Shown: in pieces, positions 5,044 through 37,101 of the stretch
How positions within the stretch are numbered: position 1 is the first letter of the stretch
Layout of the letters: every line of letters starts with the position of its first letter
Program-made: the position numbers and the translations under genes
Notes under the pieces: model-generated
Databases searched by the model: none
What the model saw: only the letters and a program-made list of their open reading frames with translations
What the model was told of the DNA's origin: nothing
Source of the DNA: a virus
Strand: one strand, 5' to 3'
Virus genome (UHGV): UHGV-1364951
Length of the DNA: 46,583 bases

Positions 5044-5068
5044 ACCCGCAAACAAGCGGGTTTTTTAT
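5044..5068 (+). terminator. rho-independent terminator
   Basis: acccgcaaacaagcgggtttttt. Confidence 0.6.
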
Positions 5069-5079
5069 TGGGGGTTATC

Positions 5080-5898
5080 ATGGCTGTCAGGTACGAAATA
5101 AACACAACTCCGGCTGACGGAGAGGTTTTGCTTAGCGAAACCATGTCAGCAGACTGGACTGCATTGCAGGTACAGATTGTGCCATTAAACTCTTCCGGCG
5201 GCTATGAGCCATTAACAAGCGGCTCTGTCTCCGTAATGGTATCGCCGTTTGCATCTGGTGACTTCTGGATTGACGTCAACAATAATAATTATTATGGCGT
5301 GGCATTGCGACTGAAGGTGATCAAGTCACAGCTTCCTGCTGGCGTTGCATCCCTGAAAGTCCTGGTGTGGCGAGCCGATACATCAGTACCATCAAGCCAG
5401 GTTGTCGCGCAGTCCTACTCGGAGCTTGCCAATAAGCAAGGAAAGCTATTCACCGCATCGCGTCGCGTGACTGATGTTGCTGGCGGGGCTAACCTTGACA
5501 GTATTTTTATTACCGGTTCAAAACAGGTTGTGTTTAACCAGCGTATTATCGGATACACCGGAAAAGGTGTCGTGGCGTCAATCTACCGTGGAGCCGTAGC
5601 CACTGGCGGCACCGCTGCGGAGATTAATAACCCAAATGACATCGCGCCGCATACTGAAACAGTGCAGCTTCTGACTGGCTCTACGATTACAAGTATTGGG
5701 CAGCTGACGGTAGCCGCGACGTATAGTGAAGGGAACGCATCGAATCAGGGGCAGGGTAATTCGCAGGCAAAACTTGGTGAGCAGGTCATCATGGCGCCTA
5801 ATACTACATATCTGTTGCGCATCACATCCCTGGATACTGCGGCGCAAAATATCAATGCTTACGTTTCGTGGTTTGAGGATGATGCTTATCTTCCGTGA
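5080..5898 (+). CDS. hypothetical protein, possible virion-associated (beta-rich, N/G/S/T-rich)
   Basis: ATG at 5080, in frame with the track ORF 5068..5898 (TTG); 272 aa; own terminator downstream. Confidence 0.4.
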   Translation: MAVRYEINTTPADGEVLLSETMSADWTALQVQIVPLNSSGGYEPLTSGSVSVMVSPFASGDFWIDVNNNNYYGVALRLKVIKSQLPAGVASLKVLVWRADTSVPSSQVVAQSYSELANKQGKLFTASRRVTDVAGGANLDSIFITGSKQVVFNQRIIGYTGKGVVASIYRGAVATGGTAAEINNPNDIAPHTETVQLLTGSTITSIGQLTVAATYSEGNASNQGQGNSQAKLGEQVIMAPNTTYLLRITSLDTAAQNINAYVSWFEDDAYLP

Positions 5899-5905
5899 TA
5901 AAAGA

Positions 5906-5930
5906 AAAGCCCCGTGAAGGGGCTTTATTG
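5906..5930. terminator. bidirectional intrinsic terminator
   Basis: aaagccccgtgaaggggcttt flanked by A-run and T-run; separates the rightward 5080-5898 gene from the leftward clamp-fragment gene. Confidence 0.55.
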
Positions 5931-6467
5931 CTACAGACGCATCGGCATAACAACAATCTTCGCATTCTCGCCAGATGGCGCACTAAGGCAGCAAACTGCG
6001 GCATTTGTATTTCCATTCAATTCAAACTTAACGCCACAGAATTTAGGATTAAACAGCTTCGCGGCTTTCTCGGCATCCACAAGATAGCCAGAATTGAAGC
6101 CAATTTCCTCTGCTGCTTTAGTTTCCTTTGGTATCGCGCGGTCAATATCAGGGAATCTACCATCAATCTCTTCGCAGATACCAGCGCCCCCCATCACGCC
6201 AGCTTCATCATGATACGTTGCAATTTTCGACTTAGTATCAATGATGGCGTAGTCATAGCGTTTTGTTGGTGACTTGCCAATCTTGATAATCACGTTTTCT
6301 GTCAGCTTATTGTCATGAGCGCCTCCAATGAATGCGCGATGACCGTCAGTTGACGCAATGCGACCATCAGGCATGAAGCAGATACCGTTCAGGTAATACC
6401 GCACATCGTTGCGAGCCTGAAATATTAATGCTGATTCAAGTAATAGTTTGCTGATTTTTAGTTTCAT
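5931..6467 (-). CDS. truncated DNA polymerase III beta sliding-clamp (DnaN) homologue
   Basis: 178 aa. It aligns to E. coli beta domain II plus the C-terminal tail: VRYYLNGICF…ASTDGHRAF… ~ YYLNGMLFE…ATDGHRLAV; IDGRFPDIDRAIPK ~ VDGRFPDYRRVLPK; EIGFNSGYLVD ~ EIGFNVSYVLD; KIVVMPMRL ~ AYVVMPMRL. ATG at 6467 (track gives a GTG at 6470). Confidence 0.6.
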   Translation of the reverse strand: MKLKISKLLLESALIFQARNDVRYYLNGICFMPDGRIASTDGHRAFIGGAHDNKLTENVIIKIGKSPTKRYDYAIIDTKSKIATYHDEAGVMGGAGICEEIDGRFPDIDRAIPKETKAAEEIGFNSGYLVDAEKAAKLFNPKFCGVKFELNGNTNAAVCCLSAPSGENAKIVVMPMRL

Positions 6468-6640
6468 CACTTCACCTTAATCATATGCTGTTTTGCAACC
6501 TTCAGGCATTCTTCAAAAATGCCACCCTTCTTTGCGCTCTGATTGCGCCTGTAATACTGAATAGCCGCATCAATTGCCATCTGGTCGATTTCAGGTAGTT
6601 TGGTACGAAGTTGTTTTTCGATGAATTGTTCTGGTGTCAT
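6467..6640 (-). CDS. hypothetical protein (57 aa)
   Basis: MTPEQFIEKQLRTKLPEIDQMAIDAAIQYYRRNQSAKKGGIFEECLKVAKQHMIKVK; ATGA / TGATG overlaps with both neighbours; below the track cutoff. Confidence 0.35.
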   Translation of the reverse strand: MTPEQFIEKQLRTKLPEIDQMAIDAAIQYYRRNQSAKKGGIFEECLKVAKQHMIKVK

Positions 6641-6858
6641 GGGTGTTTCGTTACCTTTTTTATTTTATCTCCAGATAAATAACAGGACGTATATCTTTTA
6701 CTACCTGCTGTTATCCTGCACACAACAAAGCTACCAATCTTTTTTACGGATTCAACAGTAGCCAGTCTATGACTTCCTGGTTGTATCTTGTCTCCGGGCA
6801 TCAATCCATCAACTCTAACTTTTATAATTGATATGCCATCATCTGTTGTAGTCATCAC
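6637..6858 (-). CDS. hypothetical protein (73 aa)
   Basis: track ORF, coupled to the ParB-like gene upstream. Confidence 0.4.
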   Translation of the reverse strand: MMTTTDDGISIIKVRVDGLMPGDKIQPGSHRLATVESVKKIGSFVVCRITAGSKRYTSCYLSGDKIKKVTKHP

Positions 6859-7670
6859 ATCTTCTCCAGAATTGCCATAACCTCGTGAATATCAGCGACA
6901 GGAATCTGGATAAATTCCTCATCCTCTGCCATCACATGACCAGCAGGGAGAATCACGTGGTCTGCTTGCTTCAATAACTCAATCAGGCGGTCTACTGGCT
7001 TAATCTTTTTCGACTTCAGTATCTTCGCTGTGACCTTGTCCTTACCTTGTGCTTTGGCTTCTTCTACTGCCTCGTCGATAACTTTAACCGCATCATCGCC
7101 ATGCTCGCGCGTCACCGCTACGGCATTTGCATAGCTGATTTGTCCTGCACTGATACGCGCTTTTACTTCCGCCGGAACATCACCCAGCGACAGGTGCATT
7201 TGCACGTCAGATACTGAGCGACCTACCTTTTTGGCGATTTCTTCATTCGTCCAGCCAAAGCCTTTCAGTCGCGTGTAAGCCTTTGCACGTTCAAACGGAT
7301 CAAGTTGCTTACCCTGACTGGATGACACCATGAAGGCGATTTTGTCTGCTTCGTCGCCAGTGAAATCCTTACACTCAATACGAACGATTGGCGCACCACG
7401 CTCAATGGCACGCAATGCGCCAAGATAACGATGCTGGCCGTCAAGAATCTTGATGCGCTTTCCGTCGGCATCAGGAATAACAGTTAACGCCGGTATTGGC
7501 TGGCCTGATTCCCAGCACTGTGCGAAGTATTCAACGTGCTGCTCATCGGCTTCGCGGATGTTGTACCCCGGCTCAAGATAAAGCTGGTCTACAGGAACAA
7601 GGTAAGTCTTGTTTACGGTAATTCCATCACGGGTTTCTTTATTTGCATATCTCTGACTTAAAGATGCCAT
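6855..7670 (-). CDS. ParB-like nuclease-domain (ParB/Srx N-terminal domain) protein
   Basis: Motif ILDGQHRYLGAL (ParB-box GxxR); ATG at 7670 preceded by SD gaggaagg (track extends to a TTG at 7706); C-terminal half is K/E-rich and helical. Confidence 0.6.
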   Translation of the reverse strand: MASLSQRYANKETRDGITVNKTYLVPVDQLYLEPGYNIREADEQHVEYFAQCWESGQPIPALTVIPDADGKRIKILDGQHRYLGALRAIERGAPIVRIECKDFTGDEADKIAFMVSSSQGKQLDPFERAKAYTRLKGFGWTNEEIAKKVGRSVSDVQMHLSLGDVPAEVKARISAGQISYANAVAVTREHGDDAVKVIDEAVEEAKAQGKDKVTAKILKSKKIKPVDRLIELLKQADHVILPAGHVMAEDEEFIQIPVADIHEVMAILEKM

Positions 7671-7677
7671 ACCTTCC

Positions 7678-7794
7678 TCACTTTGATAAACAGATTGCGC
7701 TGGCAATGGCGAATCCGATAACGATTAACGCAAGTTTGATTTTGAAGTCGCGCCACGCTTTCAGGTCTTCTTTGCGGATTTCGTGGCGGATCAT
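7678..7794 (-). CDS. small membrane peptide (38 aa)
   Basis: MIRHEIRKEDLKAWRDFKIKLALIVIGFAIASAICLSK; ATGA overlap with the upstream 115-aa gene. Confidence 0.3.
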   Translation of the reverse strand: MIRHEIRKEDLKAWRDFKIKLALIVIGFAIASAICLSK

Positions 7795-8138
7795 TGGGAT
7801 TCTCCGAGTGCTTTGGCGATTGCGGCGCGCGCTTTGTCATATGGGCACATGCATGTAAAACCATTGTGGCCGCATGACTTATTACCACCTGTTTGCTCGG
7901 CCATTAATAATTGAAGTGCTTCCAGCAATTCCGGTGCGGCGGCGATGAGCTGTGCATTAGCCATTAGATAATCCATCTGCTCATCATCCGTGGACAGAGA
8001 CACTACGCATTCGGCGAATCTGTAGTGAGGAATCTCACCGTCATGTTCAAAATCAAAGATTGCCATTCCATCCTTGATTCTCATGCTCCATGGGCCGGGA
8101 TACCCTTTAAAACCTTTCATATTCATCACCTCTAACAT
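7791..8138 (-). CDS. hypothetical protein (115 aa), first gene of leftward operon
   Basis: track ORF; SD gaggtga upstream; conserved promoter immediately upstream. Confidence 0.45.
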   Translation of the reverse strand: MLEVMNMKGFKGYPGPWSMRIKDGMAIFDFEHDGEIPHYRFAECVVSLSTDDEQMDYLMANAQLIAAAPELLEALQLLMAEQTGGNKSCGHNGFTCMCPYDKARAAIAKALGESQ

Positions 8139-8160: not shown

Positions 8161-8189
8161 ACTATAGCGACACCCTCAATCTACGTCAA
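8161..8189 (-). promoter_or_regulatory. sigma70-like promoter TTGACGtagattg-N10-TATAGT (phage consensus)
   Basis: minus strand reads TTGACGTAGATTGAGGGTGTCGCTATAGT, with a 17-bp spacer. Confidence 0.5.
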
Positions 8190-10271: not shown

Positions 10272-10350
10272 TGGTTACCGCGACAGGATTCGAACCTGTA
10301 ATCATCCGATTATGAGTCGGGTGCTTTAACCAGTTAAGCTAAACGGGAGT
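10272..10350 (-). tRNA. tRNA-like element, anticodon CAU (Met/Ile2-type), aberrant acceptor stem
   Basis: Minus strand shows D-arm GCTT/AAGC, anticodon stem-loop CCCGA-CTCATAA-TCGGA, T-arm ACAGG-TTCGAAT-CCTGT and 3' CGCGGTA-A-CCA. The 5' strand (…CTCCCGTTTA) cannot pair with CGCGGTA as read, so this may be a pseudo or chimeric tRNA. Confidence 0.35.
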
Positions 10351-10351
10351 T

Positions 10352-10429
10352 TGGTGCACCATACTGGATTCGAACCAGTGACCTACGGATTAGAAGTCCG
10401 TTGCTACTATCCTGCTGAGCTAATGGTGC
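10352..10429 (-). tRNA. tRNA-Arg (anticodon UCU)
   Basis: Minus strand: acceptor GCACCAT/ATGGTGC, anticodon arm ACGGA-CTTCTAA-TCCGT, T-arm ACTGG-TTCGAAT-CCAGT, encoded CCA. Confidence 0.65.
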
Positions 10430-20302: not shown

Positions 20303-22468
20303 TTGCAGCCGATGGCTACTACCCCAACTAACAAGCCAATCCCTTCTGAAGACCCGCGTGACCTGAAGTTTAACGCCGGGAAGATTGATGAAGAGGTTAA
20401 CGGAAGTTCTGATTACTACACCGACCGATTCGTCGTGCAGCGGCTGACGAATACCGGCAGGAATAACCAGTTTCAGACAGCACAAGATGAGCGTGAGGCA
20501 GAATTTGTTGCGTCACAGGAAAATAAAGAATTGCGCTTTCAGCAGTTCCTCTTAAATTCAGGCTATCAATTTTTAGGTGATTATGAAAACGGCCCGTATA
20601 CAATTGATGCCATTAACCAGGTGATTCGCTATCAAGGTGAATTCTGGCGCTTAAACGCATCAACAATGCCACCATATACAACCACAGGGGTTAACAGCGC
20701 CTCTTGGGCAGTAGATGTGACTCATCTTGTAAGCGTTGGTGATGCAAAATTAAGACAGGATTTAATTTCAACTACCTTGCCTGGTTTATCATTAGTCGGT
20801 CTTTCTGGCAATGGTAATTTAAACCATCTGCTAGGTAATCATACCTCTCCTGAGGCGTGGGGAGTGGTACCAAATTCAGAAGCATCAGCTCATGCAAACT
20901 CTAGAAAGATGTTTGACATGTTTGAAAGTTTAAGATCGAAAGGCGGCGGTGTCGTATTCTTTACTCCTGGTAGAACATACTGGATTGACTTTATTCAGTT
21001 CGTACCAAGTAACGTTGTTATAATTGGCTACGGCGCTACAGTAAAGCAAATAAACCCTTTATCAATGTATGGACGCGGTGGTTTTGTGTTTGGTAGCAGC
21101 AGGGAATGGAACTATCAAAAAGCTAAAACGGCATATCTTGCAAACTCCTACCCTGCATCTGTATCTGATTCATCAATGCCTGAGTTGGCTTTAGGTTCAT
21201 ATTTAAGGGATAACCAATCATATTTACAGTGTGAAAGATGTACTGTGTATGGTTTGCGTATGGAAACAAAATTTACAGATTCTACATATTGGGGTGGTTA
21301 TGCATTTAATACAGTAAACGCGCAACACATCAGATTTTACGATGTTAAAGGAAGTGGTTGGACACAGCTATTCAATTTCGGTAATGATAGTTCCGCATCA
21401 TCACCATCTTGTGATGATGTATATGCATTCAACTCAACAGTAGAAAGCGCAGATCTTGTTCGTTCTTACTATGCGATTGGTTTTATAGCCAACTCTACAA
21501 ACTGTGGCTTTGATACAGCGGTTCTTCTAAAACCAATGACAGTTGATAGTATTAATGGATCTGGTGCAGCAACAAACTACACTGAAAACTGCGTAATCAG
21601 AAATATAAACATACCAGATTTAGGGTTAACTTCATCATCTGAAGGCGTTTTATTAAATAACTCTAAAGGTTGTTTAATAGAAAATATTGATATCAGGAAT
21701 TGTAAAAACGTAGTTAGTACATACTATACCGTCGATTCATACAATGACACTGCAAAACCTAATATTTTAAGGAATATTAGCGGTCAAGGCGTTAACATTA
21801 TAGCAATCAGGGCTAAATATGCACACATTGAATCATTTGAAGGAGTAGGTACATACACGAATGAAGTTCAATTTGCAAACAACAATGCATCAGGAAATAC
21901 TATAAATAAAAAACCAAAATCAATTGGTTTTGGTGGGACTAACTTACAGTCATGGTTTTTAACAAATAATACGGTAAAAGGATGGTCGCGAAAATATTTT
22001 TATATTCGGCCATCCGAAATTTTGTTGAACGATAAAGTAGACACTTTTTCATGGAATTATAATAAACTTGTCGCAACAAAATCAGGAGTAAATCTTTACT
22101 TTATGTGGCGAGTTCCTGACGATATCAATGCAATTGATGATATTCGCGCTTTTATTAGATTTAACACTGCCGTAGATCAAGATGCTTCTGTTGCTGGATC
22201 TACAGTAGAGGCAAGTTTGATACAAATGGTCGCTTTCGATGGTAACATTGGTGAAACACCATATGTTGCTTTTTCAAACAGCAAGGTTGCAACAGCGGGT
22301 GTAGAAGACACAACGGTAGTAACGCAAATGGGTAGCAATGTACCAGGTTTGGTTTATATGGATGATAATACACATGGTTTATCCTATAGCTGGTATGTGC
22401 TGTTTAAAATGACAAATAATGTCAACAATAACTACATGAAAGAAATCAGAGTAGCGGGGTATAACTAA
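20303..22468 (+). CDS. tail fibre / tailspike (receptor-binding protein), beta-helix-like C-terminal region
   Basis: 721 aa; the N-terminal ~130 aa are of normal GC, then an abrupt shift to AT-rich sequence; repetitive N/G/S/T-rich segments consistent with a parallel beta-helix. Confidence 0.55.
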   Translation: MQPMATTPTNKPIPSEDPRDLKFNAGKIDEEVNGSSDYYTDRFVVQRLTNTGRNNQFQTAQDEREAEFVASQENKELRFQQFLLNSGYQFLGDYENGPYTIDAINQVIRYQGEFWRLNASTMPPYTTTGVNSASWAVDVTHLVSVGDAKLRQDLISTTLPGLSLVGLSGNGNLNHLLGNHTSPEAWGVVPNSEASAHANSRKMFDMFESLRSKGGGVVFFTPGRTYWIDFIQFVPSNVVIIGYGATVKQINPLSMYGRGGFVFGSSREWNYQKAKTAYLANSYPASVSDSSMPELALGSYLRDNQSYLQCERCTVYGLRMETKFTDSTYWGGYAFNTVNAQHIRFYDVKGSGWTQLFNFGNDSSASSPSCDDVYAFNSTVESADLVRSYYAIGFIANSTNCGFDTAVLLKPMTVDSINGSGAATNYTENCVIRNINIPDLGLTSSSEGVLLNNSKGCLIENIDIRNCKNVVSTYYTVDSYNDTAKPNILRNISGQGVNIIAIRAKYAHIESFEGVGTYTNEVQFANNNASGNTINKKPKSIGFGGTNLQSWFLTNNTVKGWSRKYFYIRPSEILLNDKVDTFSWNYNKLVATKSGVNLYFMWRVPDDINAIDDIRAFIRFNTAVDQDASVAGSTVEASLIQMVAFDGNIGETPYVAFSNSKVATAGVEDTTVVTQMGSNVPGLVYMDDNTHGLSYSWYVLFKMTNNVNNNYMKEIRVAGYN

Positions 22469-22796: not shown

Positions 22797-23300
22797 TCAG
22801 AATGGGATATCATCATCAAAATCCATCGGCGGCTCGTTTGCCGGTGGTTTTGACGTGTTTGATGGTTGCTGGGGTTTGCCCCATCCTGATTGCTGATTAT
22901 TTCCTGACTGTTGCCGTTGCTGTGATTGTTGGTTTCCATTATCACTTGATTTACCACCAATCATTTGCATAACGCCGTTCATAGGCTGCAAGACGATTTC
23001 AGTAGTGTATTTTTCAACACCGCTTTGATCTGTCCATTTGCGAGTGCGTAATTTACCTTCTACATACACCTGAGATCCTTTGCGCAGGTATTCTCCAGCT
23101 ACCTCTGCCAGCTTTCCGAAGATAACCACGCGATGCCATTCAGTTTGCTCTTTCTTTTCACCTGTGGCCTTGTCATTCCACTGTTCTGATGTTGCCAGAG
23201 ACAGATTGCACACAGCGCCGCCAGATGGCATATATTTAACTTCCGGTTCTTGTCCGAGAGTTCCCAAAATGATTACTTTGTTGATTCCGCGAGATGCCAT
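22797..23300 (-). CDS. ssb: single-stranded DNA-binding protein
   Basis: OB-fold N-terminus ([30 protein letters not shown]…), Gly/Gln-rich linker, C-terminal DDDIPF tail. Confidence 0.85.
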
Positions 23301-23309
23301 AATTTACCC

Positions 23310-24350
23310 TTAAAAGTTTTCGATGTTCTGTTGAGATGTTGATGGCTTCTCTTCGTTTGCAGATGACGCAGGCGCATCTGCTTTCTGGAGTTTTGCCGGA
23401 TTAAAATCGTCCTGCGGTGTTATAGTTACCGCTGCTGGCGATTCATCATTAATGAATGATTCAATGCGCTCATACTCTTCTGCTGATGCCTTCAATGTAG
23501 GCCAGATTGCGCGAATTTTTGCTTTCACTGAATCAGGCAAGTTAACTGCCTCGGCAGTTAACGCAGCAACGCCTTTTGACGCCGTCATTTGAAGTTTAGA
23601 GCGCCAGTGCTCAAACTCTTCGTCGACCTTGACACCTGAATCTACCCATTTAATTAAACCACGACCATGAGCCTCGCCTAAGTATCCTTCGTGCACACTA
23701 TCACGGCCTGAATCAAAGAAAATTGGACGCAACTCTTCTGGTAGCTTGGTAAATTCCTGAATTTTCCCATTATCATACATCATCATGCTTACTGTCATTT
23801 CAAACATAAAATCTTTTTCGCATACAGCATGCAATCCGAGGGATTCAGGTTTCTTGGGGTTTTTAAAGCTCGTTTTCTCTCTGGCGCGTAAACATACAAT
23901 GATATGCATATTGCTCTGCAAAAGAGCGCTCATAAATTTTTTATGTTCAGACTTGGCTCGTTTCCAGTCTGCCATTGCCTTACCCTGCAATAGTGGTTGC
24001 TCTGCAATATCATTGCATCCGCCTTCACCTTCCCATTCGTGCGATCCTGAATCAATAACCAGAACCTTAACGCCAGCCTCCTGAAATTCCTCGATAGCCT
24101 GGCGGTAACGGGCAGGGCTAAATGGCGCATACAGATCAGCGTGCATAAATGGACCGTCAAGCTCTCCAGAATAAAGCCTTCCGCGACCATTTTCAGAGTC
24201 AAGAAATCCAATTTCTTCTGGTTTATCGACCATACCTCGCGCCATCTTTAGTGCCGTAAGTGTCTTACCGCTACCAGACTGACCTGAAATGCCAATCACT
24301 ACACGAGAACCAGAGCGCTCTGCTGGCTTAATGTTTAAAATACCCATCAC
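23310..24350 (-). CDS. RecA-like AAA ATPase (AAA_24/Sak4-like) with C-terminal extension
   Basis: Walker A GISGQSGSGKT; Walker B VLVIDSGS. Confidence 0.5.
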   Translation of the reverse strand: MMGILNIKPAERSGSRVVIGISGQSGSGKTLTALKMARGMVDKPEEIGFLDSENGRGRLYSGELDGPFMHADLYAPFSPARYRQAIEEFQEAGVKVLVIDSGSHEWEGEGGCNDIAEQPLLQGKAMADWKRAKSEHKKFMSALLQSNMHIIVCLRAREKTSFKNPKKPESLGLHAVCEKDFMFEMTVSMMMYDNGKIQEFTKLPEELRPIFFDSGRDSVHEGYLGEAHGRGLIKWVDSGVKVDEEFEHWRSKLQMTASKGVAALTAEAVNLPDSVKAKIRAIWPTLKASAEEYERIESFINDESPAAVTITPQDDFNPAKLQKADAPASSANEEKPSTSQQNIENF

Positions 24351-24370: not shown

Positions 24371-25327
24371 TTACAGGTTAAATTGCTTTTTGAACCATTC
24401 TGGCGTTTCCATTTCGATGACCGGATTACCCATTGAGTAACCTGGCCATGAATTTGCTTTTTTGCATGCCTTATAGATTTCCATCGCGCTGCGCAGTTGA
24501 ATGCGACCAATGCGTAACTGCTCATCCGTAAGACGAATCAGCGCAGGGATGAATGGCGATTTTTTTTCCTGCACCAGAAGATTTACCGAGCGCGGAGCAT
24601 GCCCATAAGCCTCTACAAACATGTCGTGCTGCATTGCCATTTTCATAAAGTACCCGAGCCGCGCTGCATGGCGGAAAAACTCATCAGGCTTGGCGCTAAC
24701 CGCTGTTTTGTAGTCAATAATGTCGCCACCGCGAGTAAGACAGTCAAAGCGTACCTTTGATGGTTCGCCAAGCAACTGACCGAGAATTGACACCTCGGAA
24801 TAAGCACCAGAAAGCAGGCTGCTGTAATAGCTGTTTGCATGTATTACGGCGCGCATCTGCATGATAGCGTCATAATCAGTTCCTTCAAGCATATGCTTAC
24901 CAGTAGCGGACTTCTCTGCCTCTTCTCGGATAACATCGTAAATCTGCACTGGCTCGCCAGTGGCCTGAATAATTTTAATCACATCAGCTTTCGACTTCCC
25001 TGAAAGGCCTTTGATGCCGCGCTCTTTTGCCCATGAGTTCATGTCGGAAGCAGTTACAAGCACCGTGCGATTGCCATCTTTATCTTTTAGAAAATCTTCG
25101 ACAACTGGCATGCGGGCATACTCTGCTTCGAATCGCTCAGGCTCCAGCAGTGCAGTATGGCTACCTGTTCCGAAGACAAGAGCCTTTGATTGCTCGTCTT
25201 CTTCGTCTTTATAGCGCCATGCTGCCGGACAGCGGTCGTAGATGTTCCACAGACCAGAGCCGTTGATGTGCTCGGTGTCAGCGTGGTACTGCTCATTGCT
25301 GAGTTCGTTGTTTAAATAAACTTTCAT
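24371..25327 (-). CDS. PD-(D/E)XK-family exonuclease (RecB/Cas4-like)
   Basis: 318 aa; motif …RFDCLTRGGDIIDYKT… (D…D.K). Confidence 0.45.
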   Translation of the reverse strand: MKVYLNNELSNEQYHADTEHINGSGLWNIYDRCPAAWRYKDEEDEQSKALVFGTGSHTALLEPERFEAEYARMPVVEDFLKDKDGNRTVLVTASDMNSWAKERGIKGLSGKSKADVIKIIQATGEPVQIYDVIREEAEKSATGKHMLEGTDYDAIMQMRAVIHANSYYSSLLSGAYSEVSILGQLLGEPSKVRFDCLTRGGDIIDYKTAVSAKPDEFFRHAARLGYFMKMAMQHDMFVEAYGHAPRSVNLLVQEKKSPFIPALIRLTDEQLRIGRIQLRSAMEIYKACKKANSWPGYSMGNPVIEMETPEWFKKQFNL

Positions 25328-25371: not shown

Positions 25372-25788
25372 TCACTCATCAAGCCCAAAATAGAATAACG
25401 TCGCTCTTTTTAGCTCCTCAAGGCCATAAGCAATGGCACCAAAGTGACCCTCTGCAATGGCGCACTCAAGAACCTCAATCTGTGATGGTGATACCTTTGA
25501 TTTTGCCCTGTCACGCCTCTTCAGCTCAATCAGGCCGCATTTATGATTAATGCCGTGAGTTAGTATCACATTGTCGCTTACTCCGCTCCTGACGCCCATT
25601 TTTCGGCGTTTTTCGATGAATTGCGGCCCGCTCTTTGTTCCAGTTTCGTTAGACACATGAAACCACAGGACTTCAGGAAATCTGTATTGCATCCACAGAC
25701 CATAGGCCATCTGGTCAGATTCCTCCCTTGGACACTCCCCGCGATAACCGCTATCAAATACCCATATTCCACTATCAAGCTGCTTCAA
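25372..25788 (-). CDS. VRR-NUC-like nuclease
   Basis: 138 aa; …HGINHKCGLIELKRRD… matches the VRR-NUC core. Confidence 0.4.
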   Translation of the reverse strand: MKQLDSGIWVFDSGYRGECPREESDQMAYGLWMQYRFPEVLWFHVSNETGTKSGPQFIEKRRKMGVRSGVSDNVILTHGINHKCGLIELKRRDRAKSKVSPSQIEVLECAIAEGHFGAIAYGLEELKRATLFYFGLDE

Positions 25789-27682
25789 TTTGTTCTCCTA
25801 TGAAATCCTTGCGGTGGATGATATCGCGGCCTTTATCGTTAAAGCGATGCGTGATGCGCTTAGGCGCGCGGATTAAACCGGCGTAATGCATGAAAGTCTT
25901 CGCATCATGGCAGTCCATCATTTTCTTCAGCATGGACTTGTCTTCAAGATGCGGAAGCAGAGCCTTCATTTTAAACATGTCACGCAGGTGCTTTGGCTTG
26001 CCTCCGAATGGATAAAATACTTCATTTGCCCAACCTGTCTTGCCATCTGCTTTTACCACCAGGTAACGATAAAGAACCCCCTCAGCGTCTTTTGTCAACT
26101 CGACTTTAAAATCTTGCACATCTGTCCATTCTTTATCGGTATAAGCTCGCTCATTAAGCGCCGCGTTAGGGTCGCGCAAAACGTGATCGCATTGACGGCA
26201 ATAACGAGCTGTAGGGTCGTTCTTTGTGCCGCAACCATCATCAAAAATACGAATGCCGTGCTTGTCGAAACCACAGCGAATGAAGCTGAAAAACTCTTCG
26301 CATCGTCCATCTGGAGACGTTGAGTCTTTACCGATGCAGCGCCGTGCATATGGGCTGTTCATCGTCTGGCATTTAGGGCATGGAACCTGCTCTCCGCTGC
26401 GCTTTGCGCGCTGTGCTTCTGCTTCCTCAAGAATAGGGTCTTCGTACAGACCGCCCAACTCGAACATGGTTCCGGTGAAATCTAATACAAGGTGATCATC
26501 TTTCCTGTAACCTGCTGCAATTTGCTCAGGTTTTAAAAGACGCATACCACGGCCAAGCAACTGAACAAGAAGGGTAAGTGACATTATTTTTCGCAATATA
26601 ACACTCGTGTCCCATAGTGGGATATTCACACCAGTAGTAAGCGCGGCAATCTGCAACACATATTTAATGCGACCTTGGTAAGCATCCTTTAGCGCCTTCT
26701 GTCGAGCCTTGATCCCCATATCTTCAGTGACAATTGCATAAGTGCCATCTGGCAGGTATTTCGCGGCTTCTTGACAGTGTTTTTTACCAGCACACGTTAT
26801 AAGAACCCCGTTGCGATTTGCGGTTAATTCCATAACTTTAAGCATTATTTTTTGCGTGAGAGTACCCTGATCGAGAATCTCTTTTTGCATCTGCTTTAAT
26901 TGCTCAAAAGTAAAATCTTGCACTCCATCTTCATCCGATGAATGAAAGTTAGAGAGGTCATAGTGAAGGTCGTCAGCATCATGCAAGCCAAAGATGGTAG
27001 GAACCAGAAAACCACGATCAACCATGTATTTAGTATCAATGCTAACCACTTCCTTTTTCCAGAATGCGCCCTTGATTGACTCAACGCCACGAAATGGTGA
27101 GCCAGTAAGGCCGATAATTCTCAACTCATGACCATGCGTGTCTTTGCAGCGCTTCATGAAGGTATTTATTATAATTCCGTACTGCGTTGTTGCATCACCT
27201 ACAACATCAGCCCAATCCACCTGGTGACATTCGTCAATGATTAGGTAACGGGGGACAAAATCGCTTAATGGCTGTTTTTTATCATCCGCATCAAAAAGAG
27301 AGTTGACGACCGTTCCCTCTGTACCCATAAGCAACGGATAAGCAGTTGACTTGCGACCAAGCCCAGCGCTAAACAATGAATTTTTAACACCAAAATTCCA
27401 GCACTCCTCAGCATTCTGAGAAATAATTTCAGACTGTCTGGCGAGTACCATTCCTTTATAACCCATGTCTGAAAATCTTCTCGCAATCATCGCGATCATG
27501 ATTGTCTTCCCAGCGCCGACACTGGCTGTTATATAAAAAGGCCCTGCATAATGACGAATTTCCTGAGCTGCCAAGTGGTAGCAAAGAAACTGATAATCAC
27601 GAGGAGTGATTTCTCCTGTGCTTATCGTTGATTGTATTGCTGTGATGTCTATTTCACTTATTAGCTTATCTATCTTGTGCAT
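25775..27682 (-). CDS. SF2 DEAD/DEAH-box DNA helicase with C-terminal Cys-rich region
   Basis: Walker A ASVGAGKT; DECH box IIDECHQV; helicase C-terminal motifs; CPKCQ…CRQC. Confidence 0.65.
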   Translation of the reverse strand: MHKIDKLISEIDITAIQSTISTGEITPRDYQFLCYHLAAQEIRHYAGPFYITASVGAGKTIMIAMIARRFSDMGYKGMVLARQSEIISQNAEECWNFGVKNSLFSAGLGRKSTAYPLLMGTEGTVVNSLFDADDKKQPLSDFVPRYLIIDECHQVDWADVVGDATTQYGIIINTFMKRCKDTHGHELRIIGLTGSPFRGVESIKGAFWKKEVVSIDTKYMVDRGFLVPTIFGLHDADDLHYDLSNFHSSDEDGVQDFTFEQLKQMQKEILDQGTLTQKIMLKVMELTANRNGVLITCAGKKHCQEAAKYLPDGTYAIVTEDMGIKARQKALKDAYQGRIKYVLQIAALTTGVNIPLWDTSVILRKIMSLTLLVQLLGRGMRLLKPEQIAAGYRKDDHLVLDFTGTMFELGGLYEDPILEEAEAQRAKRSGEQVPCPKCQTMNSPYARRCIGKDSTSPDGRCEEFFSFIRCGFDKHGIRIFDDGCGTKNDPTARYCRQCDHVLRDPNAALNERAYTDKEWTDVQDFKVELTKDAEGVLYRYLVVKADGKTGWANEVFYPFGGKPKHLRDMFKMKALLPHLEDKSMLKKMMDCHDAKTFMHYAGLIRAPKRITHRFNDKGRDIIHRKDFIGEQIEAA

Positions 27683-27690
27683 TTAATCAC

Positions 27691-28464
27691 CTATGGCATG
27701 TCAGGCCAGTAAACGTTGCTCTTAGATCTGTTTTCGCTTGGAGTTAACAATTGAAGGTTATGCCAGCAGTGAAGACCGCAAACCAACTTGCTATTTATTG
27801 GAACAATATGGTCAACGTGCATTCCAAGACTGGCTGCCATTTCATAAACCTTCTCTATCAGAACCCTTTCAGATTCGAACCAAGATGGAATTGACCTTCT
27901 TTTTAGATATTTATATTTACGCTGGTGATATCTAACAATATTTTTATTTTCAGCCCTCCAGTGTCTTGATTGCTCATTGTGCTTATCTTTGTTTTCATTG
28001 TAATACTTCTTTGATTTTGCCTTTATCTTGTTCTTATTTGCTGCGTAATTACTTTTCTTGAACTCTGATTGGCACTTCTTACATTCAGGCCTAAGACCAT
28101 CAAGTGATGATTTGTTTTTATTGAAGTTTTCTTCATTTGCATCAAGAACTGAGTTGCATTTAGAGCAGACCTTCCTTCCATCAACAAGATATCTCAGCCT
28201 TTTACCTTTGTTTCCATCGCATGATTTACAATGAGATTTTAAACCAAGCCTCATCTTCTTGTCTGAGTAGAAGTAATCACTTGTTGCAGGAAGCATTAGA
28301 TTGCATCTTGAGCATTTCTTTTTTGTCCCTGTGCTTTCGCAACCTGCACTTTCCTGAGCAACATTTTGCTTTTGCAGTTCCGATAAACTCACTTCCGCAA
28401 ACCTCGCATTTCTTAACGGTGATAGCCATTTCTTACCCTCTATTGTAACGGTTAATTGTTTCAT
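27691..28464 (-). CDS. HNH endonuclease with multiple Cys4 zinc-ribbons (homing-endonuclease-like)
   Basis: C-terminal HNH core (HVDHIVPI…N…NLQLL…N..K); four CxxC pairs; strongly AT-rich compared with the flanking genes. Confidence 0.6.
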   Translation of the reverse strand: MKQLTVTIEGKKWLSPLRNARFAEVSLSELQKQNVAQESAGCESTGTKKKCSRCNLMLPATSDYFYSDKKMRLGLKSHCKSCDGNKGKRLRYLVDGRKVCSKCNSVLDANEENFNKNKSSLDGLRPECKKCQSEFKKSNYAANKNKIKAKSKKYYNENKDKHNEQSRHWRAENKNIVRYHQRKYKYLKRRSIPSWFESERVLIEKVYEMAASLGMHVDHIVPINSKLVCGLHCWHNLQLLTPSENRSKSNVYWPDMP

Positions 28465-28536
28465 TGCAAGTAACGATTGATTGTTTCTTGTGTAAAGATT
28501 ACAATGAATCTACATCATAGTCAACTGGAAGAAATT

Positions 28537-29421
28537 ATGCGATACGACTGGAAGGATATAGAGCCTTTAATGGTAGGAAACTGGCAGGCTGCCATCATGT
28601 CGATAGTTAATGTCGACATGAGAATTTTCAATGGCAAGCATCAGCCATGCCCGAGCTGTGGCGGCAATGATCGGTTCAGATTTGATGACCACCTCGACTA
28701 CAAAGGTGACGGCGGCGCCATCTGCAACCAGTGCGGAAACGGCAGCGGAATCACCTGGCTAATGAAGCTGTCAGGAATGACGTTTCCAGAGTCAATGGAG
28801 GCACTGGCCGGATTTCTGAACATGCACCCACGCGAAAAACTTGAGGCGATTAGAAAGCAACTTCCGAAGGTCAACCATGCTTCTGACTACCTGACAGAGG
28901 CAGAAGTGGCGGCCATCATGGGAAAGGCAGGAGGCGACACTATAACTGGTAAAACTGGCGAACTGGTGGCGATACCACTCTATATGGCTGGAACTATGAC
29001 TCCGTGCAACGTGGCTTTTCTGGCAGACGATGAAAGTGTGTCATTTCGCGCGGGTTTTAGCCATGAATACACTCGCGGAAGACTTACGCGAGGTGCAGTT
29101 ACACCCATCGGCGATAAGACTGAATGGACATACCTGGTTGCGGATTACTTAGATGCCTGGCGAGCGCATCAGCTTACCGGTGCTCATGTCTGGTGTTGCT
29201 GGTCGCCGGAAAACATGTGGGAAGTTGTGCGCAATGTGAGCGATGAACAGCGAGCTAAACTTCGCTGCATCATTAATAATAATTTCGACGAGGTATGCGC
29301 CGCCGAGAATGCTGGCCTGCCAATACTGATTACTGATGATGGTCATGATATCCGTTACAGCGGCGCCATCAGAAAAAGACTATATAAACCAGAAGAGCTA
29401 TTTGAAGCACTAAAAAAATAA
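28537..29421 (+). CDS. putative DNA primase (zinc-binding + Toprim-like)
   Basis: ATG at 28537 (track ORF starts at 28477); CPSCGG…CNQCG zinc motif; C-terminal ILITDDGHD; strong terminator follows. Confidence 0.45.
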   Translation: MRYDWKDIEPLMVGNWQAAIMSIVNVDMRIFNGKHQPCPSCGGNDRFRFDDHLDYKGDGGAICNQCGNGSGITWLMKLSGMTFPESMEALAGFLNMHPREKLEAIRKQLPKVNHASDYLTEAEVAAIMGKAGGDTITGKTGELVAIPLYMAGTMTPCNVAFLADDESVSFRAGFSHEYTRGRLTRGAVTPIGDKTEWTYLVADYLDAWRAHQLTGAHVWCCWSPENMWEVVRNVSDEQRAKLRCIINNNFDEVCAAENAGLPILITDDGHDIRYSGAIRKRLYKPEELFEALKK

Positions 29422-29445: not shown

Positions 29446-29636
29446 TATCGTATCATCAGTCTATTTATATCAACACTTGCATGAAGATGGCGATGCCAGT
29501 AACTATCAATAACATGATAGTTTGATATTAACCAGCAGCCGTGCAATTTACTCCAGAAAAACCAAACACTCCAACCATAAGGCCTAAAATGATATGCGCC
29601 TTCTGACCTTACTAAGTAACCTTTTATCTTCATCAT
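29445..29636 (-). CDS. hypothetical Trp-rich protein (63 aa)
   Basis: ATGA-coupled to the upstream ATPase gene; ends at the terminator. Confidence 0.3.
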   Translation of the reverse strand: MMKIKGYLVRSEGAYHFRPYGWSVWFFWSKLHGCWLISNYHVIDSYWHRHLHASVDINRLMIR

Positions 29637-31186
29637 TTAAGCCTTGGATTAAGGTAAACAGTGTTATTAAGGAATACGCAATATCCATCTTCTTCAAGAG
29701 ACGGCAAAACGTTTGACTTGAGTCTGTCATAAATGTGCGGTATGCCTTTGAATGGTCTAACGTTTTTTAGTGAATCATACAGCCATTTCACCGTGACATT
29801 TGTCTTTCCTTTTTGCGCAGCTGTGCGCAATTTTTCAGCAACCACATCAATTTCTGATTTCTCGCCAGCGTATCCATTTGACTCAACGGCATCGGTAAAT
29901 GTTTTTGTTAGTGCATCATAAACGCTTATGGCGCGACTTATATGCTCCTCACCAATAATTTTTGATCGACGCCCGCCATCGCACCAGTTTTCAGCGGCAT
30001 GGAATATTGCCGAAAGCCTGATTATCTGTTTGTCAGCCTTACCCATGGCACCACGAAGCAAAACGTGATCCCATTTGCCACCTGGCAGGAAATTCTTTTC
30101 CCACTGGTTTCGTAAAAGCCCAATCATACGCTGCGATTCTTTAGCGAGGGAGAAAACAACCTTCTCAGAAGCCACAAGGTTATGCACAAATCTGGCATAT
30201 TCTGCCTTTAGTTCTTTAGGCATTGGCTTACTTACCGGGCAATCATTTTCCACATCCCAATGCTCACGATAACCAAGCATTGACTGCTCACGAAGCATCA
30301 GGAATCGCTCTGACAATCCATTACCTCTGTCACCAGCAGACAGAATGGCGTCAATACTTTCATCCTGTGCAATAACGCTGATGTTACCAAGCACATAGCC
30401 AGATGAAACACCACGACCAACGCGAGCTGAGCCAACAAAACCGCCATCCCAGCCTTTAAGGATGACCTCGGCGTTAGACTTGCCACCATCTTTGCCATAT
30501 GAAAGGCCAAGACAGGTATTTAAAACGCTTGCCTCATCACTTATGAGGTTGAAAAAACCACCCTCATGAATTGCCTGGTGCTGCACTGCTTCTGGTGTCG
30601 CATCGGTTAACGGGTAGGTGATGGTGTAAAGACTTTCCAGTTTTTCCTTCTCTTTCGCGATATCATCTCCAATGATGGCTTTAGCATTCTGATTCGTCGC
30701 CTCTTTGTAGGCCTTCATAAGGTCTTCAATGCGAATGTTTATCTTTACAATTTCCTTCTCCATCTTTTTTGACAGGTTGTCATACTCAATTTTTATCGGG
30801 TTCATGTGCATTGAGTTGATAGCTGTCTTGCCAGCTGATGGCGGCTGCGACGTCACCACGTACAAGGAAACAGGCAATTCAGAACCGTAGTATTCAACGC
30901 TAAAATTTCGCGTCATGGCACTTGCTACGCATCCCAGAAGGTGCATGAATGATGTGCTAACGGGGAATTGCACAGCCCTCGCAGCTGCAACTGAGTAGCG
31001 CGTTATCAGGTCTTTCCTGTTGTCGCTGGTAAGCTCTATCTCTGAGTATGTTACATCCTTCTCCTGCCCTTCCTTGATTTCAGGCCACATGTTGTGGCTT
31101 GGTGTCATGCCATGATGAATGGCTACGCGCGCCGCAGAGGTATGCGCCTCTCTTGCCTGATTGAAGATTTCCTGTGCTGTAATCAT
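29633..31186 (-). CDS. Walker-A ATPase, putative replication initiator/helicase loader (DUF3987-like)
   Basis: 517 aa; Walker A PPSAGKT; located beside the origin-like region and the primase and helicase genes. Confidence 0.4.
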   Translation of the reverse strand: MITAQEIFNQAREAHTSAARVAIHHGMTPSHNMWPEIKEGQEKDVTYSEIELTSDNRKDLITRYSVAAARAVQFPVSTSFMHLLGCVASAMTRNFSVEYYGSELPVSLYVVTSQPPSAGKTAINSMHMNPIKIEYDNLSKKMEKEIVKINIRIEDLMKAYKEATNQNAKAIIGDDIAKEKEKLESLYTITYPLTDATPEAVQHQAIHEGGFFNLISDEASVLNTCLGLSYGKDGGKSNAEVILKGWDGGFVGSARVGRGVSSGYVLGNISVIAQDESIDAILSAGDRGNGLSERFLMLREQSMLGYREHWDVENDCPVSKPMPKELKAEYARFVHNLVASEKVVFSLAKESQRMIGLLRNQWEKNFLPGGKWDHVLLRGAMGKADKQIIRLSAIFHAAENWCDGGRRSKIIGEEHISRAISVYDALTKTFTDAVESNGYAGEKSEIDVVAEKLRTAAQKGKTNVTVKWLYDSLKNVRPFKGIPHIYDRLKSNVLPSLEEDGYCVFLNNTVYLNPRLK

Positions 31187-35095: not shown

Positions 35096-35539
35096 ATGGC
35101 AAACCCGAACCCTAAGCACAAATTTTCATCCAGCAATCAGCCGCCACCAAGAGGAAAAAGCTACAGAACAGTGCTTCTTGAAGCATTACGTGCTGCAAAT
35201 ACTCCAATGAATGAGATTGAATTCGTCACGTACTACATCAACAAGGCGATGACATGCGAAGACGCTCAGGCCACGGGCATGCTGCGTGAGATATTCCTGC
35301 GACTGAACCCAATTCCAAAGCCTGTGGCCCCCCCTGTTGAGTTTGACTTTCCCACTGACGGCACACCTGTACAGAAGATGGATGCGATTATCAAGGGCGT
35401 CTCTACTGGCGTTGTTCCAGCTGACATTGGCAAGATGATGGCAGACATTCTGAAGGCCGGGCTTGATATCGAAGAGGTAACAGAGCTTGCGGCGCGCCTT
35501 GAGCGTCTTGAGAAATTGCTGGAGCAGCAGAATGTTTAA
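35096..35539 (+). CDS. putative terminase small subunit
   Basis: 147 aa basic/helical protein immediately upstream of TerL (ATG at 35096; track ORF starts at a GTG at 35060). Confidence 0.45.
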   Translation: MANPNPKHKFSSSNQPPPRGKSYRTVLLEALRAANTPMNEIEFVTYYINKAMTCEDAQATGMLREIFLRLNPIPKPVAPPVEFDFPTDGTPVQKMDAIIKGVSTGVVPADIGKMMADILKAGLDIEEVTELAARLERLEKLLEQQNV

Positions 35540-35687
35540 ACTATCAATGTCATTAATGGTCTGCGCCATGCTCATGTTTGCTATGGGTGATAAGTCAAAC
35601 GAGATTGCGTTTGCGATATGGGGCATCATGTTCATGGCTGCATCAACAATAATTAATATTATGGGGCAGCCACGCCATGGCTCGTAA
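35532..35687 (+). CDS. small membrane peptide (51 aa)
   Basis: MFKLSMSLMVCAMLMFAMGDKSNEIAFAIWGIMFMAASTIINIMGQPRHGS; overlaps the TerS end and the TerL start. Confidence 0.3.
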   Translation: MFKLSMSLMVCAMLMFAMGDKSNEIAFAIWGIMFMAASTIINIMGQPRHGS

Positions 35688-37101
35688 ACGCCTCTCTGCA
35701 CTTGCAATCGAAAAGCTGGAGGCACAGGTGGATGATGCGCTGACCGATGTTGCTGAGTCGGCTATCTTCGGAATCTGCGACATGCAGAAGAACGTCATCA
35801 AGCGCCTAAGAATGACCGCTACGGGAGTGGAGGATGTTACCAATGAAACCACGCAGTCAGACCACTTAATCCCCGCAAAACTCGAAAGGCTGCTTTATCC
35901 GAAGCGTAATAAGGTCGTCTTTGGTGGTCGTGCATCAACAAAGACCCGTACCGTGGCAACCATACTCACCGAGTCCGCGCGATTCAGGCCGGAGCGTATT
36001 GGCTGCTTCCGCGAAATTCAGCAGTCTATCGAGGACTCCAGCTATCAGGAGCTGGTAGACGAAATAGACCGTAAAGGCGAATCATCAGAATATCGCTGCA
36101 TCGACGGCAAGATAACCCACAAGCGAACGAAATCAAAATTCAGGTTCCGTGGCCTTTATCGCAACATCACCGGCGTCAAGGGTTTTGCCGGGATATCGAA
36201 AGCATGGGTGGAGGAGGCCGAGAACGTCAGCCAGGCATCGTGGGACATTCTTGAACCAACCATTCGCGCAGAAGGCTCTGAGATATGGGTGACGTTCAAC
36301 CCCAACAAAGAAACCGATGCCACGTGGACTCAGTGGGTGGCGCCATATTACGACAAGATGGTCGATGGCATCTATGAGGATGATGATACATTAATCATTG
36401 AGTGTAATTACCGCGATAACCCGTGGTTTTATGACACCCCGCTCCCGGCATCCATGGAGAAGATGAAGGCAGTCGACTTCGACCGCTATCTCTGGATTTG
36501 GGAAGGTAAATTTAATAAGCGCAGCGATGAGCAGGTATTCGGTGGAAAATGGCGCACTGCATCGTTTGAGGTTAATCCTGAATGGCATGGCCCATATCAC
36601 GGAATGGACTTCGGTTTCAGTGGCGACCCTGCCGCAATGGTTGAGGTTTGGGTGGAAAATCTACCCGGCGACCGGCGCAACATTTATATTAATCGTGAGT
36701 ATGGCAAGGTTCACCTTGAGATTACCGACCACCCGGCAGCAATGGACCAGGCATTTCCTATGGCGCGTAAGGCCCGCTGGTATGCCGACTCCTCAAGGCC
36801 AGAAACCATAAGTCACATCAAGCGCGCTGGCTTTGACATTCATCCCTGCAACAAATGGCCGGGCAGCGTTGAGGATGGCGTCACCTGGCTCAGGGGTTGC
36901 GACAACATCATCATTCATGACCGTTGTACAGAAATGAAAAATGAGGCCGCCATGTACAGCCATAAGGTCGACAAGAATACCGGCCTTGTGCTTACTGAAA
37001 TCGTTGATAAATACAACCACTATTGGGATGCCGTGCGCTATGCGCTAAATGACTACATCGTACAGCGCGGCTCAGGATGGATTAGGCGGAGCAGGAGATA
37101 A
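35677..37101 (+). CDS. terL: terminase large subunit
   Basis: 474 aa; N-terminal ATPase region (…KVVFGGRASTKTRTV…) and a C-terminal nuclease region with acidic residues (…WYADSSRPE…DAVRYA…). Confidence 0.75.
   Translation: MARKRLSALAIEKLEAQVDDALTDVAESAIFGICDMQKNVIKRLRMTATGVEDVTNETTQSDHLIPAKLERLLYPKRNKVVFGGRASTKTRTVATILTESARFRPERIGCFREIQQSIEDSSYQELVDEIDRKGESSEYRCIDGKITHKRTKSKFRFRGLYRNITGVKGFAGISKAWVEEAENVSQASWDILEPTIRAEGSEIWVTFNPNKETDATWTQWVAPYYDKMVDGIYEDDDTLIIECNYRDNPWFYDTPLPASMEKMKAVDFDRYLWIWEGKFNKRSDEQVFGGKWRTASFEVNPEWHGPYHGMDFGFSGDPAAMVEVWVENLPGDRRNIYINREYGKVHLEITDHPAAMDQAFPMARKARWYADSSRPETISHIKRAGFDIHPCNKWPGSVEDGVTWLRGCDNIIIHDRCTEMKNEAAMYSHKVDKNTGLVLTEIVDKYNHYWDAVRYALNDYIVQRGSGWIRRSRR

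Follow-up and report, generated by a model that had tools for sequence, protein, structure and literature searches.

The β clamp DnaN, itself a drug target, is the hub around which interactions in bacterial replication and repair are centred. The Escherichia coli protein (E. coli β, PDB 1MMI/2POL) is an acidic, three-domain clamp of 366 amino acids (aa), with a hydrophobic pocket for the clamp-binding motifs of other proteins between domains II and III. Short phage homologues of the DNA polymerase III (Pol III) β subunit were noted by Kazlauskas and Venclovas in 2011 as 'covering the second and third domains', without a function (PMC3201878). GenBank notes call two of them a 'DNA Pol III b subunit fragment' (Bcep43 gp15) and a 'possible moron' (gp07 of Sodalis phage SO-1); genome papers name the family simply a sliding clamp that holds the polymerase on DNA, and the routine label is "Pol III beta". 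Here we describe a member of this family encoded in the virus genome UHGV-1364951, a stretch of 46,583 nucleotides (nt) that we analysed as a whole and refer to as the window. The gene, hereafter the mini-clamp gene, occupies positions 5931..6467 of the minus strand and encodes 178 aa. We consider it probable, at about 0.6, that its product is a non-ring pocket module acting through the clamp-binding motifs of host proteins. A preliminary description of the gene had presented a truncated clamp-pocket mimic as a host-takeover mechanism not previously described in phages. Short homologues were in fact already on record, and our survey of the literature on them returned homology-based annotations only, with no functional study and no proposal of a pocket mimic. 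What is new here is the anatomy of one and a half domains without the dimer interface and one helix, a statistical concentration of conservation in the pocket, and genomic data that point to a gene acting alone.

Other described systems resemble the mini-clamp in part. The best experimental proxy is the monomeric β mutant I272A/L273A, which likewise has an intact pocket without a ring; unlike the mini-clamp, it is an artificial, acidic protein with three full domains. This mutant gives no processive tethering of Pol III, binds the clamp-loader subunit δ ~50-fold tighter than the dimer does and still binds DNA (PMC11139829). The herpesvirus factors UL42, UL44, BMRF1 and PF-8 consist of two full domains, carry a strongly basic face for DNA binding and attach to the C-terminus of the cognate viral polymerase, whereas the phage in the window has no polymerase of its own. 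Gp168 of Staphylococcus phage Twort (PDB 7EVP) is, as proposed here for the mini-clamp, a phage protein that interferes with the β-clamp hub. The two are not homologous and their logic is opposite, in that Gp168 binds the clamp and the mini-clamp imitates the docking site of the clamp.

Judged by its sequence, the mini-clamp is a true DnaN derivative, and the similarity to DnaN from which the preliminary description had set out is significant in profile searches. In phmmer searches of PDB sequences its best matches are the enterobacterial β clamps of Enterobacter, E. coli and Klebsiella (E = 5e-13 to 6e-12), with residues 8–155 aligned to β 136–289 and, in a second and weaker alignment, residues 119–179 to β 313–366 (mini-clamp residues are numbered throughout in the 179-aa frame of the open reading frame (ORF) described below). 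Identity to E. coli DnaN is ~33% over 155 aligned residues, and a hidden Markov model (HMM) of 109 diverse family members matches E. coli DnaN at 1.9e-34. The single sequence stays below the thresholds of the standard families, scoring 17.7 and 16.1 bits against Pfam domains of DnaN, a family covered by PF00712, PF02767 and PF02768, where the gathering score is 27, and 33 bits against TIGR00663, where the cutoff is 137.65.

Membership in the short phage family is equally clear. The protein matches PHROG 3007 from end to end (1.4e-62; residues 2–179 against profile positions 1–186 of 190) and shares length and motifs with Bcep43/Bcep781 gp15 and SO-1 gp07: ~170–220 aa, a start at the domain II boundary, DVRYYLNG, TDGH and FPD motifs, and a C-terminal MPMR. 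A search of a protein library of 1.84 billion cluster representatives gave 1645 matches; since the best of them are almost all 170–215 aa long, this is a genuine short family and not a collection of broken genes. PHROG 3007 carries the label 'RusA-like Holliday junction resolvase', which has been copied into RefSeq (NC_042037, NC_013600 and others). This label is a propagated annotation error; the mini-clamp has no RusA match in Pfam or NCBIfam and its predicted fold is that of a β clamp, and we rejected the RusA identity. A protein that keeps only the docking pocket would mean a correction for hundreds of phage records, which read either 'Pol III beta subunit/sliding clamp', implying processivity, or 'RusA-like resolvase'. 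PADLOC defence-system profiles gave no match for the mini-clamp or its operon partners.

An AlphaFold2 model built from a 109-member alignment has a predicted local distance difference test (pLDDT) score of 96.6 and a predicted template modelling (pTM) score of 0.91, and supports the β-clamp fold. The top 50 Foldseek matches of the model in the PDB are all β clamps, with no solved structure of ~180 aa among them, and BFVD holds many viral models of 178–210 aa with template modelling (TM) scores of 0.8–0.87 to the mini-clamp. The N-terminal two thirds of the protein correspond to domain II (β ~126–253), in which the equivalent of helix α2 (β 197–208) is a short loop in the model. The last ~60 aa form one β-α-β-β-β unit, about half of domain III, whose two ends, EIGFNSGY at the start and VVMPMRL at the finish, correspond to the second half of that domain, and whose middle, AAKLFNPKFCGV, resembles β 270–281 of the first half. 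This C-terminal half-domain thus looks hybrid (window 6060–6100, aa ~124–147): AAKLFNPKFCGV agrees with AAILSNEKFRGV (β 270–281) at 7 of 12 positions, and the resemblance could stem from an ancient internal repeat or from recombination between the two halves.

Missing from the mini-clamp are therefore domain I, half of domain III and one of the channel helices. The preliminary description had domain I missing and only the extreme C-terminus of domain III kept; the first part stands, but about half of domain III (~60 aa) is retained, and the loss of helix α2 from domain II goes beyond that account. At 178 aa the protein is well short of a three-domain clamp of ~366 aa, and DSSP assigns only two long helices to the model (8–17 and 127–140), where a helix-lined channel has two per domain. 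The dimer interface of β is formed by I78, F106 and R103 in domain I and by I272, L273, E298 and E304 in the first half of domain III (PMC11139829). All seven residues fall in segments that have no counterpart in the mini-clamp, so the earlier statement that the ring-forming parts had been discarded is borne out. The same deletion undermines a second idea put forward with it, namely that the fragment heterodimerises with host β and blocks ring closure as a poison subunit. Close homology to enterobacterial β speaks for such pairing; because both halves of the canonical interface are deleted, we find it hardly credible.

A ring could also be closed with another stoichiometry. E. coli β* is an internal dnaN product, N-terminally shortened at the same domain boundary as the mini-clamp (~residue 135); it comprises domains II and III, and Skaliter and Paz-Elizur are said to have found in 1996 that it works as a trimer. 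Unlike the mini-clamp, β* keeps all of domain III and the interface, and a functional ring has been reported for it. By analogy, four copies of one and a half domains would supply the 12 β-α-β-β-β units of a phage-specific clamp. The arithmetic fits (3 units × 4 = 12), family length is tightly conserved and IMG/VR contains intermediate-length forms. Head-to-tail closure, however, would have to pair an intradomain-type with an interdomain-type surface, and the lining of the channel would have gaps where the helix is missing. No positions are conserved beyond the pocket and structural glycines and prolines, the basic isoelectric point (pI) is unlike that of ring clamps, and no phage clamp loader is present. 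We regard such a ring as quite improbable.

What the protein does keep, at the level of sequence, is the hydrophobic pocket that lies between domains II and III and receives clamp-binding motifs in β. We used the 18 pocket residues of a 2024 β-clamp review (PMC11139829), which assigns R152, L155, T172, G174, H175, R176, L177, P242, R246, V247, V360 and M362 to subsite I and H175, N320, Y323, V344, M362, P363, M364 and R365 to subsite II. Fifteen of the 18 are identical in the mini-clamp (R24, L27, T41, G43, H44, R45, P107, R111, N126, Y129, V173, M175, P176, M177 and R178), and the other three are alanines (L177A, V247A and V344A), which may alter specificity. On the minus strand, DVRYYLNG (aa 22–29, 6384..6407; β 150–157) supplies R152 and L155, and ASTDGHR (aa 39–45, 6336..6356; β 170–176) supplies T172, G174, H175 and R176 of subsite I. 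The linker between domains II and III, IDGRFPDIDRAIPK (aa 102–115, 6126..6167; β 237–250), carries P242, R246 and the position of V247, which is Ala here. EIGFNSGY (aa 122–129, 6084..6107; β 316–323), located where the sole helix of the C-terminal half-domain starts, provides N320 and Y323 of subsite II, and VVMPMRL (aa 173–179, 5934..5954; β 360–366) is the strand and tail that close the pocket with V360, M362, P363, M364 and R365. The motifs quoted in the preliminary description, (A)TDGHR among them, are thus all present, map to β as it had them and lie within the clamp pocket, and the residue count agrees with its view that the client-binding pocket is preserved.

Conservation across the family is focused on the same positions. 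In a diverse set of 109 members, mostly 30–50% identical to the query, mean conservation is 0.76 in pocket columns versus 0.38 in all others (Mann–Whitney p=3e-8), and at ten pocket positions at least 87% of members have the same residue as E. coli. Conservation reaches 97% for R24 and 93% for L27 in DVRYYLNG, 94%, 99% and 94% for T, G and H in ASTDGHR, 99% for P107, 98% for M175 and 94% for P176. Judged from the geometry of the ring, the pocket would lie precisely where the first half of domain II meets the second half of domain III; the two pieces that meet there are those that have been kept, and the mini-clamp therefore looks like a minimised pocket carrier.

The canonical β pocket has a second ligand, as single-stranded DNA (ssDNA) was seen in it in PDB 3BEP (PMC11139829). 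The mini-clamp retains the 148–155 loop and the YY residues and has a mildly basic pI, and as a binder of ssDNA or primed templates it could mark or protect primer–template junctions or phage DNA ends. This activity is weak and secondary in β, and conservation in the family spans both peptide subsites, including the Gln-binding subsite II (N126, Y129 and M175–R178); a role of this kind seems very unlikely to us.

We favour instead the reading of the mini-clamp as a pocket module that works through host clamp-binding motifs. The protein would be the smallest part of β that still forms the cleft for motifs of the Q-L-x-L-F type: the first half of domain II would be packed on the second half of domain III, and what remains of domain II would serve as scaffold. 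Expressed from a putative promoter of the type used by host RNA polymerase, its gene being translationally coupled and the last in a small antisense operon, it would bind host replication and repair proteins off DNA, through their clamp-binding motifs. Candidate clients are clamp-loader δ, Pol III α/ε, Hda, Pol II/IV/V and MutS/MutL. By competing with the host β ring for these clients, the mini-clamp may act as a stoichiometric sink or decoy that retunes host DNA transactions for the phage. Peptide binding by the pocket, the host identity of the clients and sequestration over recruitment are all steps that we infer. Taken together, the findings speak against a processivity clamp dedicated to a phage replisome, because the pocket is conserved while ring elements and a helix are lost, the pI is ~8.3, and the gene is mobile, stands alone and occurs in phages whose replication strategies are unrelated. 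For the same reasons they favour a module that works through clamp-binding motifs carried by a conserved host component. The decoy or sink version in particular fits the stand-alone, moron-like genomics of the gene, and we would put its chances at somewhat short of even.

Several observations weigh against this interpretation. The conserved residues of the mini-clamp are also the most conserved residues of DnaN generally, and the mildly basic pI fits a DNA-binding role equally well. In addition, the phage in the window has no DNA polymerase of its own and presumably needs host Pol III, β and clamp loader. An indiscriminate sink would hurt this phage, so a decoy needs client selectivity or dosage control. 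The presumed need for host Pol III is the main caveat, and it calls for client selectivity or else for a role as adaptor.

In a bolder and more tentative form of the proposal, which we rate below the decoy, a mobile, minimised docking pocket of β would represent a new class of phage host takeover, shutting down or redirecting host replication and repair independently of phage machinery. Such hub mimicry would rely on the capture of host proteins by their clamp-binding motifs, and the targets might include the clamp loader (via δ), Hda, translesion polymerases, mismatch repair or RecBCD. If true, phages would have an unrecognised route to manipulating the hub, by imitating the clamp instead of binding it, and the protein would offer a ready-made, probably monomeric scaffold for the study of clamp-binding motifs and the screening of pocket inhibitors without the ring. 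Relatives of the mini-clamp occur in Dhillonvirus, Kagunavirus and Skatevirus, genera with E. coli phage isolates in the BASEL collection, where the idea may be testable.

The distribution of the family shows how independent the gene is of its surroundings. The short protein is found in Roufvirus, Dhillonvirus, Kagunavirus, Naesvirus, Gorganvirus, Obolenskvirus, Lietduovirus and a Vibrio myovirus, in unrelated genomic contexts and often antisense within head or tail modules. It lies antisense inside the head module in Dhillonvirus SO-1, Kagunavirus XY2 and Burkholderia phage Bcep43, antisense in the tail module in a Proteus Gorganvirus, inside the baseplate module in Acinetobacter phage Cato, and in early or DNA-metabolism regions in the Vibrio myovirus and Pantoea phage Nafs113. 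Phages with a PolA replisome and phages without a polymerase both carry it; Kagunavirus and Dhillonvirus, for instance, encode their own PolA-type polymerase and helicase-primase. Scanning IMG/VR with a back-translated DVRYYLNG pattern gave 120 loci with 110 complete ORFs, most of them short and without domain I (74). Another 15, also without domain I, are longer in their C-terminal part, 9 include a portion of domain I and 12 are full length; the 85 short ORFs of at least 150 aa form 41 clusters at 60% identity.

We found no recurrent neighbour when the genes within ±6 genes of 34 non-redundant IMG/VR loci were clustered by BLAST (at most 3 of the 34 loci). A PHROG scan of 150 neighbour proteins placed no more than three in any one PHROG, and those three were HNH endonucleases. 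HNH endonucleases are thus the only neighbours of mini-clamps that recur, and weakly; the window also has an HNH/EndoVII-type endonuclease gene, at 27691–28464 (minus strand), between a helicase and a primase gene. A regular expression for the clamp-binding motif, run on the proteomes of the window, pIS4-A, XY2 and SO-1, gave matches that were at chance level and non-terminal, with none in replication proteins, and phage polymerases, including PolA of Kagunavirus and Dhillonvirus, contained no pattern resembling the motif. A phage-encoded partner with a clamp-binding motif was dismissed, the motif matches being at chance level. Separately, Bcep43 gp17 (5517–7661 on the minus strand of locus L004), two genes from the mini-clamp, has a perfect QLSLF at aa 462, and a MuF-like head protein of XY2 (35386–36462 on the minus strand of locus L005), near its mini-clamp, has QVLLF at aa 50. 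Both may be chance occurrences; the placement in head modules is recurrent.

The window (~46.6 kb) is essentially the complete genome of a small siphovirus of the Roufvirus/Skatevirus group. The name T1-like, given to it in the preliminary description, is inaccurate: its first 25 kb are 93.7% identical to Aeromonas phage pIS4-A over 92% of their length, and it has many Klebsiella, Salmonella and Escherichia relatives. Its genes include two helicases (25775–27682 and 29633–31186), a primase (28477–29421), a single-stranded DNA-binding protein (SSB; 22797–23300), an ExoVIII-like exonuclease (24371–25327) and a Sak4-like protein (23310–24350). No DNA polymerase gene is present among the genes of the whole window, and the phage must therefore use a host polymerase.

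This gene content counts in favour of an adaptor or recruiter. The pocket would capture a host clamp-binding protein, for example Pol III core, Pol I, ligase or clamp loader, and a second surface would bring it to phage DNA or the primosome. For a phage with helicases, primase, SSB, exonuclease and Sak4-like protein and no polymerase, recruitment of Pol III would help; the family is more basic than β, its context is DNA metabolism in some phages (after a helicase and a nuclease in Nafs113, near SSB and Dam in R20L), and the gene is co-transcribed here with one for a ParB/KorB-like DNA-binding protein. However, we detected neither a conserved phage partner gene nor a second conserved surface, the family is found equally in phages with complete T7-like replisomes, and the gene is frequently isolated inside structural modules. 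An adaptor thus seems unlikely, although it is the alternative that we take most seriously.

Charge bears on a further alternative. The family has a median pI of 8.3, compared with 5.25 for β and 5.56 for the equivalent β segments, and a higher pI has been linked to non-ring clamps (Kazlauskas and Venclovas, PMC3201878). By that criterion the family falls on the non-ring side, as would be expected of a processivity factor like UL42 or UL44, a monomer or C-shaped dimer on DNA that tethers a polymerase without a clamp loader. Given the pseudo-symmetry of clamps, two of the half-domains could conceivably pair about a two-fold axis and rebuild a domain. On the other hand, one of the three expected DNA-facing helices is missing, the net charge of the mini-clamp is only about +2, and monomeric β gives no processivity. 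There is also no phage polymerase in the window to be tethered, and PolA of Kagunavirus and Dhillonvirus lacks a sequence resembling a clamp-binding motif. We consider a factor of this type improbable.

Comparison with pIS4-A reveals a gene under selection within a divergent cassette. Flanking genes are 93–98% identical at the protein level, with rates of synonymous substitution (dS) of 0.11–0.25, whereas the mini-clamp and orf57, the gene upstream of it, are 70% and 75% identical with dS of ~1.9–2.1, which is saturated. The divergent mosaic cassette spans 5931–6640 of the window and corresponds to 21530–22239 of locus L001, and alleles 90–93% identical to the mini-clamp of the window are present in other phages. 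This pattern indicates that alleles of the cassette have been exchanged between phages by recombination. The ratio of non-synonymous to synonymous substitution (dN/dS) of the mini-clamp against pIS4-A is 0.12; such a low value despite the divergence points to a functional gene under purifying selection.

The mechanically called ORF runs from a GTG at 6470 to the stop codon at 5931–5933 (5931..6470, minus strand, 179 aa). The product is most likely the 178-aa protein that starts at the second codon, the ATG at 6467, as this ATG overlaps the stop codon of orf57 (UGAUG) and follows an AAGGTG Shine–Dalgarno sequence, read at 6478–6473, with a 5-nt spacer. Homologues are mostly 178 aa long, and this is the length given in the preliminary description. 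Two plus-strand ORFs antisense to the gene, 5895–6272 (125 aa) and 5914–6087 (57 aa), were rejected as spurious shadows of its frame, because the homology and the purifying selection reside in the minus-strand frame; no sign of coding was found in the plus-strand ORFs that overlap the mini-clamp.

The mini-clamp is the last of five tightly packed minus-strand genes lying antisense between head genes. From upstream to downstream, the unit consists of a promoter (8189–8161), orf115, the gene for the ParB/KorB-like protein, orf73, orf57, the mini-clamp and a terminator (5926–5906). The sigma-70-like promoter upstream of orf115, TTGACG-17-TATAGT (8161..8189, minus strand), matches at 10 of 12 positions; the region holds no more promoter-like sites than chance would give, and for this one only the position is suggestive. 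The first gene, orf115 (7791..8138, minus strand), belongs to phrog_1273, which has no assigned function. The ParB/KorB-like protein (283 aa; 6855..7706, minus strand) matches phrog_1033 at 1.9e-90 and the Pfam families HTH_ParB and KorB, with a TIGR00180 match below cutoff. Next come orf73 (6637..6858, minus strand), which overlaps its neighbour by 4 nt on either side, and orf57 (6467..6640, minus strand); neither has an assigned function or a family match in scans with Pfam, NCBIfam and PADLOC profiles. The UGAUG overlap between the stop of orf57 and the start of the mini-clamp indicates translational coupling. The terminator, a GC-rich hairpin with an 8-bp stem followed by a T-run (5906..5926, a minus-strand site), sits between the mini-clamp gene and the convergent plus-strand gene at 5068–5898.

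Some further features of the locus and the family are worth recording. The ParB/KorB-like gene, orf73, orf57 and the mini-clamp all four have overlapping start and stop codons. The ParB/KorB-like protein belongs here to a lytic siphovirus, and the corresponding unit of some relatives includes a C-specific methylase. About a fifth of family members extend past the MPMR terminus, and the protein of the window has no such tail. The longer tails often end in -AA (or in -LV or -VA), like C-terminal degrons of the ClpX type, and in several there is a P-x-W/F-(A/L) motif, which might serve as a linear motif or act as a self-binding pseudo-ligand; examples are found at loci L020, L052, L123 and L048 and in proteins P0222, P0230, P0237, P0239, P0264 and P0267. 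Finally, the structural region of the window contains adjacent genes for tRNA-Met(CAT) and tRNA-Arg(TCT) at 10272–10429 (minus strand), and pIS4-A has the same pair.

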